DNA of 64,000 bases from an uncultured delta proteobacterium. GTDB taxonomy: Bacteria > Desulfobacterota > Binatia > UBA9968. The position numbers were made by a program, and so were the translations under genes. Location: positions 64,001-128,000 of the forward strand of contig CAVTUQ010000025.1 in NCBI GenBank assembly GCA_963737905.1, written 5' to 3'. A model generated the notes under the pieces. It was not told the origin of the DNA. It saw nothing but the letters and a program-made list of their open reading frames with translations, and did not search any database. Shown here one piece after another: positions 5,264 through 25,930 of the stretch. The stretch's first letter is position 1. Each line of letters starts with the position of its first letter.

Positions 5264-6148
5264 CTATCCCGTCGCGACCGCGATCTTCATGCCATCCTTC
5301 TCTATGAGCAGAGGCAATGGCGCCAGATGAAGCTCGCCCATGTCCAAACATTGCCCGGCAGTGCGCAAATCGTAACGCCGCGCGCAGGAGGAGCAGGTTA
5401 GTTGGTTCTCCTCGAGAGCGCTTCCGCCTAGCGTCGAGCCACAGGACGGGCAGGAGTCCTGATAGGCGTAGAAGGTCTCGCCGATCTTGCACAAAAGAAT
5501 GCTCATCCCTGCCAATTTTGTGAGAGCGAGATTTCCCGGAGTGAACTCAGGCAGCGTGTCGAGCGCTATCCACTGTCCCGAACTAATTTCGAGATCTTGC
5601 GTGGCTGTTGGGTTGCTCTTCGGGAAAGCGCCGTTTCCGTTCGAAGCGATAGTTGTGGATGGACTCGATCCCTCGACCTCAATGCGTACGACTTCGGGTG
5701 CCGCCTCTTCGATTGCCTTCTCGATCGCCAGTTTCATGGTGATCGTCGATGAAGGGCAACCGTCGCAGCTTCCTTCGAGGCGCAAGCGAACTATGCCCTC
5801 GTTTACACCGAGGAGCTTGACGTCGCCGCCATGGGAACCGAGGTAGGGGCGCACACGATCAAGAGCACGCGCGATTCGCGTTTCAACATTGAGTGGATGC
5901 AACCCATGAAGAACCAGCAGGCTCGCCACGAGATCGTCTGCCGCGAGCCGGTCAAATATTTTATCCGTCGACTCCGTGTCATCGACGATCTCCAGGATGC
6001 GGGCCAACGCGAAGCCATATAACTCCATCAACAGCCGGACCAACTCTTCAGCCTTCGCACGAACGCGGGGATCGGCAACGGTTCCGAGTTCCTGGAGCAG
6101 GCTCTCGATGCGGTCGCCCGCCGCGCGGAGATCTTTTTCCTGTGACAT
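5264..6148 (-). CDS. hhyE: NifU-like plus Rieske-like FeS protein (HhyE)
   Basis: VRPYLGSHGGDV...GSCDGCPSS NifU domain; C-terminal CPSC...CSSC Rieske-like domain. Confidence 0.85.
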   Translation of the reverse strand: MSQEKDLRAAGDRIESLLQELGTVADPRVRAKAEELVRLLMELYGFALARILEIVDDTESTDKIFDRLAADDLVASLLVLHGLHPLNVETRIARALDRVRPYLGSHGGDVKLLGVNEGIVRLRLEGSCDGCPSSTITMKLAIEKAIEEAAPEVVRIEVEGSSPSTTIASNGNGAFPKSNPTATQDLEISSGQWIALDTLPEFTPGNLALTKLAGMSILLCKIGETFYAYQDSCPSCGSTLGGSALEENQLTCSSCARRYDLRTAGQCLDMGELHLAPLPLLIEKDGMKIAVATG

Positions 6149-6174
6149 GAGAAGCTTCTTGCCGCTGAGTCGCT

Positions 6175-6210
6175 GCCCCTATCCTCACCTTCCCCCGAGG
6201 CGGGGGAAGG
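6175..6210. repeat. REP-like GC-rich hairpin, left partner of an inverted pair
   Basis: cccctatcctcaccttcccccgaggcgggggaagg; approximate reverse complement at 7809-7845. Confidence 0.7.
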
Positions 6211-6296
6211 AACCGGAAAAAGACAGAGCTAAGTTTCGGTTCTTACCTTCGAATTTTCCGAACTTGGCGCCCTTTGCGCCTCTTATGAAAATACAG

Positions 6297-7532
6297 TCAC
6301 GCAGCCATCTGCAATTTCTCCAAGCTGATTTCATAGCCGAGTTTTTGTAGCCGGGTCACGCAGCGTTTGGTGACAGCCTGACGGTCGCGTTCATCAAAGT
6401 AGTTCGCACCCAGATCCGAATAGGGCTGTTTGCGCGTGAGCAGATGATAAGCGATCACCAAAATCGAATGGCCGACCGCCACCTGAGCTTTCTTCTTGCC
6501 GCGCCGAGCACCGATGCGGTGATACTGGGAGCTCAAATATTTATTCTTGGTGTGCGCGGCCCCATGCGCGGCTTCCACCAGGCAGTGACGCAACCACGGG
6601 CTGCCTTTACGCGTGCGCCCGGTGCGACGCTTACCTGCCGACTCGTTGTTCCCAGGGCACATACCCGCCCACGATGCCAGATGCCGGGCGCTCGCAAAGC
6701 GGCTCATGTCACCACCGGTTTCCGCCCACAACACCTCGGCCGTGCGCTGGCTTACTCCGGGAATGGTATCGAGCCAGGCGATCTCTTGCTCAAAAGGGCG
6801 CAGTCTCGCCTCGATTTCACCGCTGAGCCGTTCGATCGCTCCTTCCAGATAGTCGATCTGCGCCAGATGCTCGGCGATCAGAAAGCTCTGATGGGGCTGC
6901 AGCCGACCCGAGAGCGCCTCTACCAGTTGCGCACGCTTCTCTTTGAGCCGGCCCTTGGCCAAGCTGGCCAGCTCTTGGGTGTCTCTTTGTCCCGCCACCA
7001 GCGCCTCCAGCATCAGTCGCGCCGAGACCCCGTCGATGTCGCTGACCACGTTCGACAACTTGATATTGGCCGCCTCCAGCACCTTCTGAAGTCGGTTGAG
7101 GGTGCGGGCGCGGTCGCGCACCAAGGAGCTCCGATACCGCGTCAACTCGCGCAATTCACGGACATCGGCGGGTGGTACAAAACTACCTCGCAGCAATCCG
7201 TGCGCGAGCAACTCCGCTATCCACTCGGCATCGCGAACATCGGTCTTGCGACCGGGCACCGCTTTGAGATGCTGCGCGTTGACCACCAGCAACTCAAATT
7301 GCCCTTCCAGAATGTTATAGACCGGCTTCCAATAAACCCCCGTCGATTCCATCGCCACGTGCGTGCACCCTTCCTGCGCCAGCCAATCCGCCAGCCCCAG
7401 CAGATCCTTGGTCATCGTCCCAAACTGTCGAATCTCTCTTTCCCAAGCACTACCCAACCACTTCAGCCGACACGCCGTGATACTTCGCTTGTGAACGTCC
7501 AACCCACAACAGCGTTGGTAAATCACTTGCAT
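6297..7532 (-). CDS. IS110-family DEDD recombinase/transposase
   Basis: GLDVHK, MESTGVYW, KTDVRDA, GMCPGNNESAG (catalytic Ser region); intact 411 aa. Confidence 0.97.
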   Translation of the reverse strand: MQVIYQRCCGLDVHKRSITACRLKWLGSAWEREIRQFGTMTKDLLGLADWLAQEGCTHVAMESTGVYWKPVYNILEGQFELLVVNAQHLKAVPGRKTDVRDAEWIAELLAHGLLRGSFVPPADVRELRELTRYRSSLVRDRARTLNRLQKVLEAANIKLSNVVSDIDGVSARLMLEALVAGQRDTQELASLAKGRLKEKRAQLVEALSGRLQPHQSFLIAEHLAQIDYLEGAIERLSGEIEARLRPFEQEIAWLDTIPGVSQRTAEVLWAETGGDMSRFASARHLASWAGMCPGNNESAGKRRTGRTRKGSPWLRHCLVEAAHGAAHTKNKYLSSQYHRIGARRGKKKAQVAVGHSILVIAYHLLTRKQPYSDLGANYFDERDRQAVTKRCVTRLQKLGYEISLEKLQMAA

Positions 7533-7544
7533 TGCCTCACCCCC

Positions 7545-7770
7545 TATCGAAAGCTAATTTCCCAAGACCAAAGGAGCACTCGTCTTGAAAAGATTCTCTT
7601 ATGCGTGCTTCCCTATACTGGGAGCAACAGACCGTGTTTCCTTAGAATGCTCGGGTCCTACTTTGCCCAGGCTCTTGGCGCTAGACGCAAATCGACCGCC
7701 GGTCATTGGCCTTCGGCAATGCGACGCTACCATTTTCATCCGCCGTGTTGTACCGATTGGTACATGAATT
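7545..7770 (-). ncRNA. Putative IS110 bridge RNA
   Basis: About 240-nt non-coding end containing target-matching segments (7683-7691, 7661-7666) and a donor-matching segment (7596-7603); boundaries approximate. Confidence 0.7.
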
Positions 7771-7808
7771 ACTTTGCGCGAGATATCTTCTTTCCGCTCC
7801 CTTGTTTT

Positions 7809-7845
7809 CTCCTCCCCGCCTCGGGGGAGGATTGCGGTGGGGGCG
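7809..7845. repeat. REP-like GC-rich hairpin, right partner of the inverted pair
   Basis: ctcctccccgcctcgggggaggattgcggtgggggcg. Confidence 0.7.
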
Positions 7846-7849
7846 TTCC

Positions 7850-9622
7850 TTATTCCACCTGATTCAGCAAGGTTGGCGAGTGCCGCTTCTCCAAGACCTT
7901 GCCGTTCCCTAGATACATGTGCACGCCGCATGGCAAGCACGGATCGAAGCTCCGCACCGTGCGCATGATGTCAATGCCTTTGAATTTATCTCCAGGTCCG
8001 TTCTCCTCGAATATCGGCGAGTCCTGTACAGCGTCTTCGTAGGGCCCGGGAGTACCGTAGATGTCACGCGGGTTGGCATTCCACGGCGTGGGCGGATAGG
8101 GATGATAGTTGGCAATTTTTCCGTCGCGAATCACCATGTGATGCGAAAGCACGCCCCGCACAGCTTCCGTAAAACCACAGCCGATGGCGTCCTTGGGTAC
8201 CTTGAAAGGTTCCCAAGTTTTGGTGTGCCCGGCCCGCACCTCCTTCAACGCCTGCTCGATAAAATGCAACGCACAGGCGGCGGAATAGGCCTGAAAATAA
8301 GTCCGCGCCCGATCGCGCTCGATGGTATTGCTCCACTTTGGAATCTTCCATTCAAAGGTCACTTCGGGCTTGGTCGCTGTCTTGGGCAGGTTGATGACGA
8401 CGCTTTTGCCGGTCGCTTTCACGTAGCCGATGTCGACCAGTCCTGCCAGCGCTGTCACCCACAACCGCGCAATAGGTCCACCGCCGGTGTCTAGCGCGAG
8501 ATGATCTTTACCGTCGTACCACCGGGGCGACATCACCCAGCTATACTTGTCGTCGAAGTTTCGCTTCTGGGGCTTGGGAATCGTGTGTTGATTCCAGGGA
8601 TGAAGCTCGTCCACCGGATTACCCAGCGGGTCGTTTTTCACAAAGATCTCTTTCCCTTCCCAGTTCTCGTAATACGAATGTCCCAGCAGGATACGGATAC
8701 CGAGGTTGATCTTGACGAGATCTGTAGTCAAAAGTTTGCCGTCCACGACAATACCCGGGGTCACGAACATCTTGCGCCCCCATTCGGTCATGTCGCGATA
8801 ATTGAAATTGCAGTGCTCGGGGTCCTGCAAGCTACCCCAGCAACCGAGCAGGATGCGGCGATCGCCTACTTTTTCGTACCCGGGTAGAGCGTCGTAGAAA
8901 AAATCGAAGAGATCGTCGTGCATGGGAACGACCCGCTTCATGAACTCGACGTAACGCATCAGACGGGTCAGGTAGTCGGTGAACAATTGGATCGTTGCCA
9001 CTGTGCCGACGCCGCCCGGGTAGAGCGTGGATGGATGGACGTGGCGTCCCTCCATCAGACAGAACATTTCCCGGGTCATGCGGCTTACCTGCAGAGCTTC
9101 GCGGTAGAATTCGCCCTCGAGCGGATTGAGTGACTTCATGATGTCGCCAATGGTCTTGTAGCCGTGCGCGCTCGCTTGCGGAGCTTGGGTCTTGGCGGCC
9201 TTCTCCCAGACGCCGGGATTGGTCTCGCGCACCATCTTCTCGCAGAAGTCGACCCCCACGAGATTCTCCTGGAAGATGTTGTGATCGAACATGTATTCCG
9301 CTGCCTCTCCCAGGTTGACGATCCACTCGCCCAGATGCGGCGGCCTGACGCCATAGGCCATATTCTGGGTATAGCAGGAGCAGGTGGCATGATTGTCGCC
9401 GCATATTCCGCAGATCCGGCTGGTGATGAAATGGGCATCGCGAGGATCCTTGCCCTTCATGAAAATGCTATAGCCGCGAAAGATCGACGACGTGCTGTGA
9501 CACTCGGCGACTTTACGCTTGCCAAAGTCGATCTTGGTGTAAATACCCAAGCTCCCGACGATCCGAGTAATCGGGTCCCATGCCATTTCCACGAGATCGT
9601 TGTTCGCCTGTGCCTTGGCCAT
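7850..9622 (-). CDS. hhyL: Group 1h (high-affinity) [NiFe]-hydrogenase large subunit
   Basis: L1 TSRICGICGDNH, L2 RSFDPCLPCGVH, WDPITRIVGSLGI, cleavable C-terminal tail. Confidence 0.96.
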   Translation of the reverse strand: MAKAQANNDLVEMAWDPITRIVGSLGIYTKIDFGKRKVAECHSTSSIFRGYSIFMKGKDPRDAHFITSRICGICGDNHATCSCYTQNMAYGVRPPHLGEWIVNLGEAAEYMFDHNIFQENLVGVDFCEKMVRETNPGVWEKAAKTQAPQASAHGYKTIGDIMKSLNPLEGEFYREALQVSRMTREMFCLMEGRHVHPSTLYPGGVGTVATIQLFTDYLTRLMRYVEFMKRVVPMHDDLFDFFYDALPGYEKVGDRRILLGCWGSLQDPEHCNFNYRDMTEWGRKMFVTPGIVVDGKLLTTDLVKINLGIRILLGHSYYENWEGKEIFVKNDPLGNPVDELHPWNQHTIPKPQKRNFDDKYSWVMSPRWYDGKDHLALDTGGGPIARLWVTALAGLVDIGYVKATGKSVVINLPKTATKPEVTFEWKIPKWSNTIERDRARTYFQAYSAACALHFIEQALKEVRAGHTKTWEPFKVPKDAIGCGFTEAVRGVLSHHMVIRDGKIANYHPYPPTPWNANPRDIYGTPGPYEDAVQDSPIFEENGPGDKFKGIDIMRTVRSFDPCLPCGVHMYLGNGKVLEKRHSPTLLNQVE

Positions 9623-25900: not shown

Positions 25901-25930
25901 GTCTCCCGCAAAGGCGCCAAGGCGCGAAGT
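25901..25930. repeat. Small GCGC/AAAG repeat; unoccupied homologue of the IS110 target
   Basis: Reverse complement acttcgcgccttggcgcctttgcgggagac versus reconstructed empty site acttggcgccctttgcgcctttgcgcgagat. Confidence 0.7.

Follow-up and report, generated by a model that had tools for sequence, protein, structure and literature searches.

We analysed 64,000 nucleotides (nt) of a contig assigned to an uncultured delta proteobacterium (CAVTUQ010000025.1, positions 64,001 to 128,000), a stretch referred to below as the window, and describe an insertion sequence of the IS110 family at positions 6282-7771 together with its putative bridge RNA, the donor loop of which appears to depart from the layout known from IS621. 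The transposase gene lies on the minus strand (6297-7532), with a long non-coding end of 239 nt upstream (7533-7771) and a short one of 15 nt downstream (6282-6296). Left end and right end are used in the orientation of the transposase gene, placing the left end at the higher coordinates; flanks and junctions are called left and right as they stand on the plus strand. The element and its insertion site comprise the following features:

6254-6279, plus strand: left target, formed by the left-hand half of the host repeat (…GAACTTGGCGCCCTTTGCGC); a similar flank occurs in the second copy of the element and uninterrupted repeats occur elsewhere, e.g. at C46:9378
6280-6281, no strand: left copy of the CT core; CT stands at both junctions, and empty repeats carry a single CT
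6282-7771, minus strand: body of the insertion sequence (100% identity of two copies; flanks rejoin into the repeat)
6282-6296, minus strand: right end, 15 nt, with the subterminal inverted repeat ATTTTCAT (6292-6285) and the CATAAG that is copied by the 3' side of the donor loop
6297-7532, minus strand: IS110-family RNA-guided transposase, 411 amino acids (PF01548 and PF02371; NF033542; alignment to IS621)
7772-7773, no strand: right copy of the CT core (junction comparison between the two copies)
7774-7795, plus strand: right target, formed by the right-hand half of the host repeat (TTGCGCGAGATAT…); the two copies agree up to 7786, and the sequence is common in the genome
25896-25935, minus strand: degenerate unoccupied member of the same repeat family (repeat comparison)

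The predicted transposase matches the Pfam domains PF01548 (DEDD RuvC-like, E 1.4e-32) and, following it, PF02371 (Tnp, E 1e-22), both past the curated cut-offs, and scores 287.5 bits against a cut-off of 140 with the NCBIfam model NF033542 ('IS110 family RNA-guided transposase'). Phmmer aligns it to 8wt6, the solved transposase of IS621 (E 3e-11), and the residues equivalent to E60, D102, D105 and S241 of IS621 are conserved in the motifs vamEstg, ktDvrDae and nnESag; residue names follow Hiraizumi et al., 2024 (PMC11208158), from which the numbering of the 8wt6 chain is offset by 2 residues. The first aspartate (GLDVHK) falls outside of the IS621 alignment and is covered solely by the Pfam match, which begins at profile position 1. 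When plasmid proteins were searched for a named IS1111 reference, the annotations said only 'IS110 family'.

The boundaries were placed by comparison with a second copy of the element on another contig of the same genome (G000:C37:84866-86407), which is identical over 6280-7786 and differs only beyond that range. The left junction reads TTTGCGC (6273-6279), CT (6280-6281) and CTTATG (6282-6287), the right one TGAATTA (7765-7771), CT (7772-7773) and TTGC (7774-7777), and the empty repeats contain a single CT between two heptads. When the flanks are rejoined with one CT they yield GAACTTGGCGCCCTTTGCGC-CT-TTGCGCGAGATA, a member of a tandem CTTTGCG heptad repeat of the host. Because of the range over which the copies are identical, and because the flanks rejoin into this repeat, the element can be delimited to 6282-7771 (1490 base pairs, bp) plus one CT, and its sequence is that of an intact IS110-family member; since the second copy is identical, it has also moved recently. 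Both copies are inserted at the CT between two tandem CTTTGCG heptads, with left flanks of TTTGCGC-CT here and TTTGCGT-CT in the second copy and with right flanks that share TTGCGCGAGATAT. The uninterrupted 14-mer TTTGCG[CT]CTTTGC occurs 45 times in the 6.7-Mb genome, and a near-perfect unoccupied equivalent of the repeat is found at C46:9378. The 8-bp flank repeat CTTTGCGC was ruled out as a target duplication because the tandem form already stands in empty repeats. Two soil metatranscriptome runs and one run of marsh DNA yielded contigs with relatives of the whole element at 90-95% identity; these contigs end at 6256-6272 and 7778-7786, and their loose ends resemble the host repeat. Such breaks lend support to the proposed boundaries and target habit, not to expression.

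For the analysis of the RNA, related loci were gathered, 79 from genomes (52-69% amino acid identity, many phyla) and 80 from metagenomes (57-96%). The consensus fold was computed on 44 relatives, and the guide statistics on 31 non-redundant relatives or on 95 distinct pairs (from 123 parsed loci). Boundaries of the relatives were placed with the aid of the 3'-side matches of target loop and donor loop; those of the element itself rest on the second copy and on the empty repeats. In the consensus fold, compensatory changes in one or more sequences support 25 of the 33 predicted pairs, and four elements can be distinguished: a left-end hairpin, a target loop, a donor loop and an inner stem of the donor loop. 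The fold supports a predicted bridge RNA with two internal loops in the 239-nt left end, on the transposase strand. The left end folded as a single sequence gave a z of -0.42, and the loops were not recovered. The loops and their guides are:

7654-7697, minus strand: predicted target-binding loop, with outer stem GGUC (7697-7694) paired with GACC (7657-7654) and inner stem 7683-7668
7691-7683, 7666-7661 and 7660-7659, minus strand: target-loop guides, UUUGCGUCU (5'), GCAAAG (3') and handshake UA (target matches of the two copies; relatives L109 and L107)
7573-7652, minus strand: predicted donor-binding loop, with outer stem GAGCA (7652-7648) paired with UGCUC (7577-7573) and inner stem 7629-7604
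7638-7629 and 7603-7596, minus strand: sides of the donor loop, AACACGGUCU (5'; ACACGGUCU at 7637-7629) and CAUAAGAG (3'), from the consensus fold

The GGUC/GACC stem that closes the target loop around its inner hairpin shows compensatory changes among the 44 relatives, and the 8-pair outer stem that closes the donor loop (alignment columns 160-169 with 247-255) has 9-14 compensatory sequences for each pair. The two loops share a detail: the 5' side ends in CU, the U of which opens the inner stem as a U-G pair, kept in the donor loop in 44/44 sequences.

The target loop behaves as expected for a bridge RNA. At 8/9 positions here and 9/9 in the second copy, its 5' guide UUUGCGUCU is complementary to core and right-end flank as read on the sense strand, while the 3' guide GCAAAG repeats the sequence preceding the left end together with the core, and the UA behind it repeats the two letters with which the element opens (the handshake). 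This dinucleotide agreement holds in 26/27 relatives, the boundaries of which had been placed with this match. Together, these target-loop guides would direct the element to the CT that separates two tandem CTTTGCG heptads. Across the 31 relatives, the 5' side fits its own right flank slightly better than those of others (longest shared run 4.04 versus 3.10 across elements, 0/2000 permutations; sense control 204/2000), and the 3' side of the donor loop, CAUAAGAG, which copies the right end and the core, fits its own right end and core much better (7.32 versus 3.15, 0/2000). Retargeted relatives follow the same rule: L109, at 90% amino acid identity, carries UCUGCGUCU with the flank AG|ACACAGA and CACAGAG with the flank CACAGAG|TA, and L107 carries CACACAG with the flank GACACAG. 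An earlier note on this DNA had described an IS110 element with a readable two-loop bridge RNA programmed against a host repeat through a CT core, and the domains, the consensus fold and the guide matches bear this out; the target TTTGCGC-CT-TTGC, the GGTC…GACC-closed loop, the 8/9 guide at 7683-7691, GCAAAG at 7661-7666 and CAUAAGAG at 7596-7603 are found as it gave them, the loop and its guides as well as CAUAAGAG on the transposase strand. The covariation of guides with targets and ends in homologues, and the further copy in the same repeat, both of which it had put forward as checks, are likewise present. Its free target copy at 25901-25930 was overstated: on the minus strand this site reads CTTGGCGC-CT-TTGCGGGAG, a degenerate member of the repeat that matches the long guide at 7/9 positions and the short guide at 6/6, and not an exact target. 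Of its circle junction TGAATTA-CT-CTTATG (plus strand), the end sequences stand; the junction itself is put together from the two ends, and none was read in the contigs.

With respect to IS621, the guide frame is reversed, as CT lies on the strand opposite the RNA and the 5' side of the target loop is complementary to the sense strand. In IS1111-type seekRNAs the complement of the top strand likewise lies 5' of the match to the bottom strand, the reverse of the order in the IS110-type ISEc21 (Siddiquee et al., 2024, PMC11187229; here and below, comparisons refer to parts of the cited papers), and the sense strand of ISPpu9 carries an invariant AG at either end (PMC12288879). Because the order of the IS1111 seekRNAs and the AG ends of ISPpu9 agree with what is seen here, guides that read the strand opposite the transposase represent an already published orientation; the observation in the earlier note is correct and is not new. 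The element further carries an 8-bp subterminal inverted repeat, ATTTTCAT (6292-6285) and ATGAAAAT (7739-7732). This falls within the 7-17 bp used to define IS1111 subterminal inverted repeats, and the left one lies 32 nt, not 7, from the tip. Considering the upstream RNA, the seekRNA order and the inverted repeat, the element joins the RNA position of the IS110 group to the polarity and inverted repeats of IS1111, an arrangement that in the consulted parts of Siddiquee et al. (PMC11187229) figures only as rare exceptions.

The donor loop is where an IS621-type layout is lost beyond this turn of the frame. In the turned frame its 5' side, AACACGGUCU, would be expected to copy TGAATTA-CT, which it does not, and among the relatives it gives no signal against the core-proximal, canonical terminal half either (3.32 versus 3.28, 809/2000 permutations, n=31). 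No signal was obtained for a canonical left donor guide anywhere in the RNA in either sense, and in a family-wide scan no RNA segment tracked the first 9 nt of the element beyond the 2-nt handshake. A second reading of the donor loop, with CAUAAGAG as its 5' side and AAUUA(G)CU near 7560 as its 3' side, fits this element by eye; it has no family signal and was rejected. A donor-loop handshake, with the 2 nt behind the core agreeing with the target, is limited to 3/26 relatives.

What the 5' side does match is a segment just inside the left-end hairpin, of which it is a same-sense copy (6.19 versus 4.50, 0/2000, n=31; 6.61 versus 5.02, 0/5000 permutations over the 95 distinct pairs). The reverse-complement control is flat (3.19 versus 3.25). 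Among the 95 pairs, 80 have at least 7 matches, and in these, identity at six positions (CC and four variable letters) amounts to 75-99%; more than a dozen concordant variants were found, for example CCGTTG, CCTGGAAC, CCCCGAA, CCTTTAA, CCAGCATC and ACACGG. Mismatches at positions 4-10 lean towards the types that G-T or U-G pairing tolerates (38, against 16 opposite transitions), a weak support since the sequences are related. In the window itself, the 7-mer AACACGG has 8 matches where 6.8 are expected, which alone is not significant; its recurrence gains meaning only because of the family covariation. The earlier note had seen that the second donor guide (ACACGGUCU) keeps the CT without matching TGAATTA, as the flat statistics for the terminal half now confirm, and that AACACGG recurs at 7743-7749, which it understated, as the recurrence covaries across the clade and is tied to a conserved hairpin and a 7-nt spacing. 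The variant bridge architecture that it proposed thus holds for the displaced donor guide, which on the evidence of these alignments is a clade-wide, hairpin-linked layout, and not for the turned frame, which is already known.

One could argue that the 5' side is a canonical guide that has decayed or relaxed and has kept its core-pairing CU, its likeness to the subterminal segment dating from an old duplication, with the 3' guide and the protein choosing the donor. The CU is indeed kept in 14/22 CT-core elements, half-matched substrates can suffice for IS621 according to a preprint (10.64898/2026.08.31.748434), and the two segments of L109 carry a mismatch. A leftover would not vary in step, however, and neither the many concordant variants nor a value that was reached by none of the 5000 permutations fits with one; we regard this explanation as quite improbable.

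The copied segment takes a fixed place in the left end, which in the clade usually runs from the core through 7 nt, the hairpin and the copied segment to ATGAAAAT. In this element the order is:

7765-7771, minus strand: terminal 7-nt arm (TAATTCA; TGAATTA on the plus strand), free of guides except for the 2-nt handshake
7749-7764, minus strand: putative left-end hairpin TGTACC-AATC-GGTACA (covariation among 44 relatives; 77/82 left ends)
7742-7749, minus strand: subterminal same-sense copy of the 5' donor guide (AACACGG, then C), from the family covariation (n=31, n=95)
7732-7739, minus strand: ATGAAAAT, 8-bp inverted repeat of the right-end ATTTTCAT; ATGAAAA is invariant in the alignment of 44 relatives

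Three stem pairs of the hairpin have 18-25 compensatory sequences among the 44, and a perfect hairpin of 4-7 bp is present in 77 of the 82 distinct left ends that have a boundary. In these 77, the arm between core and hairpin measures 7 nt in 42 and 6-8 nt in 69, and the distance from the hairpin stem to ATGAAAAT is 9-10 nt in 66. At the other end, a TTTTC-like run lies within the last 12 nt before the core in 27/31 relatives. In this element, the guide counted from its stem-aligned position, ACACGGU and CU, and the arm TGAATTA with CT both extend 9 nt from the base of the stem; the two 7-nt arms are not complementary to each other (1.37 versus 1.45). When the modelled circle junction was folded as single-stranded DNA, the inverted repeat formed a stem around the hairpin and around two open sides, the predicted pairing partners of the two donor guides.

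The hairpin covaries like an RNA stem, and the IS621 bridge RNA has a 5' stem-loop (PMC11208158); it could accordingly be proposed that hairpin and copied segment act in the RNA, in a transcript started at the tip whose 5' stem-loop would be followed by a second copy of the guide, competing with or substituting for the donor-loop strand. Because the guide and its copy run in the same sense and a search for a complementary RNA partner gave none, this proposal is highly improbable in our estimation.

A further alternative is that the subterminal copy is regulatory, the complex of recombinase and RNA binding its own left end between the hairpin and ATGAAAAT and the tip being recognised by the protein alone; such binding could repress or time the transcription of bridge RNA and transposase, or mark resident copies. 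The copied segment does lie 2-3 nt upstream of the invariant ATGAAAAT, the terminal 7 nt are read by no guide, and the covariation indicates a read-out by base pairing while leaving its purpose unspecified. The constant 7-nt arm, the adjoining hairpin and a CU kept at the equivalent of the core-pairing CU of the target loop nevertheless point to a recombination site, and no promoter was detected in 7400-7900, which makes a regulatory role unlikely. Each of the three alternatives is thus weakened by either covariation or geometry.

The explanation that fits best, and that we hold to be somewhat likelier right than wrong, is that of a recently active IS110-family element with a two-loop bridge RNA, both donor guides of which read one folded strand at the hairpin. 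The 5' guide is a same-sense copy, its reverse-complement control is flat and no complementary partner is apparent on the sense strand or the RNA (5.07 versus 5.06); the DNA strand complementary to the RNA is therefore the sole candidate partner. The 5' donor guide would pair with this strand at the subterminal site; the other donor guide would read it as well, and in the guide frame it would be cleaved and transferred first. The hairpin would fold that strand back, such that its own upstream 7 nt occupy the place held by the opposite strand in IS621; the 7-nt tip and the core would lie alongside the 5' donor guide, the tip parallel to the guide and ending at the core, and the 8-bp inverted repeat ATTTTCAT/ATGAAAAT could close the fold across the circle junction. 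Reading a folded strand would suit a single-stranded or cruciform donor. Subterminal hairpins and the recognition of one folded strand are also found in the single-strand transposition of IS200/IS605, which differs in having an unrelated HUH enzyme and, instead of an RNA loop, a guide made of DNA that is part of the element end. The mechanism proposed here fits with excision as a single strand or transfer of the top strand, as reported for IS621 and CazIS110 in two preprints (10.64898/2026.08.31.748434; 10.1101/2025.10.25.684509). Taken further, the donor loop of this clade might recognise a single folded strand in general, the 7 nt serving as a stand-in and the inverted repeats closing the fold, and the bridge RNA might read a single-stranded circle or the cruciform of a supercoiled circle directly; this extension is tentative, and we consider it possible but on balance doubtful. 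If true, it would constitute a natural system made for single-strand donors and would assign a function to the subterminal inverted repeats.

Several observations weigh against the preferred reading of two donor guides on one folded strand. The partner of the 5' donor guide is deduced from identity alone and binding to DNA is putative; the identity is not strict, since the segments of L109 differ at one position (AACACAG versus AACACUG), and the last two letters of the guide are the complement of the core in 15/26 elements, with all 3 AC-core elements keeping CU. Guide and arm are of exactly equal length in 11/26 elements and within 1 nt in 17/26, and the junction fold is not significant alone (z -1.67, 22/300 shuffles as good). 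The statistics for the target-loop matches and the 3' matches of the donor loop are partly circular because 3'-side matches helped to place the boundaries of the relatives, the permutation tests ignore the relatedness of the sequences, and 37/160 loci could not be parsed while 23/123 parsed loci have no boundary. An Rfam search over 5800-8300 (all families, E up to 10) returned just one chance microRNA match, neither a sigma-70-like promoter nor a terminator was found in scans of 7400-7900, and the contigs of four sequencing runs showed neither starts or ends nor a circle junction. The relatives at 90-95% identity that occur as metatranscriptome contigs are uninformative on transcription, transcript ends and strand.

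Compared with published systems, the element is closest in general plan to IS621 (Durrant et al., 2024, PMC11208160; Hiraizumi et al., 2024, PMC11208158). Both have the two protein domains with aligned catalytic residues, an RNA encoded upstream of the gene within the long left end, two internal loops in which a long 5' guide and a short 3' guide both read the core, a 2-nt handshake after the short target guide, a CT core and a repeat as target. They differ in the length of the transposase (411 amino acids here, 326 in IS621 and 328 in the solved chain), in the turned frame, and in the 8-bp subterminal inverted repeat and left-end hairpin found here; the segment copied by the 5' donor guide here belongs to the same strand as the RNA and lies about 22 nt deeper in the element, such that both guides would read one strand, and the donor-loop handshake is nearly absent. 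The IS1111-type ISEc11 (PMC11187229) shares the order of target matches, with the complement of the top strand first, the subterminal inverted repeats, and terminal extensions of 7 nt on the left and 3 nt on the right (AAG before the core here). It differs in the position of the RNA region (upstream of the gene here, downstream there) and in the length of the repeat (8 bp here, 11-13 bp in the ISEc11 type), and the left 7 nt abut a local hairpin here, in a comparison based on ends and guide order alone. ISPpu9 and ISPpu10 of Pseudomonas putida (PMC12288879; 10.64898/2026.03.19.712850) likewise have an upstream bridge RNA and target a repetitive extragenic palindromic (REP) repeat; the former has AG at both sense-strand ends as seen here, and in the latter a DNA stem-loop adds to base pairing. 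In ISPpu10, however, that stem-loop lies in the target and the donor guides are described as canonical, whereas the element studied here has its stem-loop in the donor end, together with a displaced donor guide. Neither such a displaced guide nor a hairpin of the donor is described in the literature searched; Extended Data Fig. 10c of Durrant et al., 2024 and all supplements were outside of this search and may bear on the point.

Acidobacteriota, Chloroflexota, Cyanobacteria and Bacillota are among the phyla in which members of the clade occur. Only 6 of 61 related genomes (the element's own included) have a match at E 1e-40 or better, and the best one outside its own genome is 52-53% identical. 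The genome also contains a second IS110-family element at 53% amino acid identity (L016, G000:C33:30838-32070) and a truncated copy (L018, G000:C26:211910-212506); in another genome, the L016-type relative L008 shows the same left-end order of hairpin, copied segment and ATGAAAAT. One Anaerolineae genome carries six copies of one relative (L057, L058, L060, L061, L062, L094), each directly 3' of a TCAGGAG-like sequence that is matched by its own 3' target guide and with an ATG a few bases past the right end. Because of this sequence and the ATG beyond it, the target of these copies looks like a ribosome-binding site before start codons. Short tandem repeats are expanded in the left ends of L031/L032 and L037/L039, downstream of the donor loop and between bridge RNA and start codon (GATCAGATCG-type, and GAACGC about ten times). 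Head-to-tail arrangements, which represent integrated donor-type junctions, were also seen: in L071 and L083, right end and core are directly followed by the left end of the same or a related element, and in L072 and L028 a left end is preceded by right-end-like sequence.

At the locus in the window, the element is flanked by two minus-strand genes (5264-6148 and 7850-9622), and the insertion may be polar on the gene downstream. The upstream open reading frame, of 590 amino acids, contains RICGICG and a C-terminal DPCLPCGVH, which we take to indicate a likeness to the large subunit of NiFe hydrogenases. GC-rich inverted copies flank the insertion site, CCTTCCCCCGAGGCGGGGGAAGG (6188-6214) on the left and CTCCCCGCCTCGGGGGAGG (7811-7835) on the right, and in the absence of the element they would make a larger palindrome around the heptad repeat. 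In run X15, one low-depth contig of an RNA library (depth 2.5, side 21) links 6221 to 7851 with 15 other letters between, which suggests a relative that lacks both repeat and element at this locus.

For the host, this is an ordinary repeat-targeting insertion sequence between two genes, presumably hydrogenase-related. Its significance lies with the family: bridge recombinases are under development as programmable tools for genome writing, while donor recognition and the form in which the elements travel are disputed, with the two preprints (10.64898/2026.08.31.748434; 10.1101/2025.10.25.684509) arguing for single-strand circles. A widespread clade in which the donor guide appears displaced across a hairpin offers a natural test case for donor recognition. 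If the rule holds, the terminal 7 nt would be freed from guide constraints and a structural element would be added to donor design.

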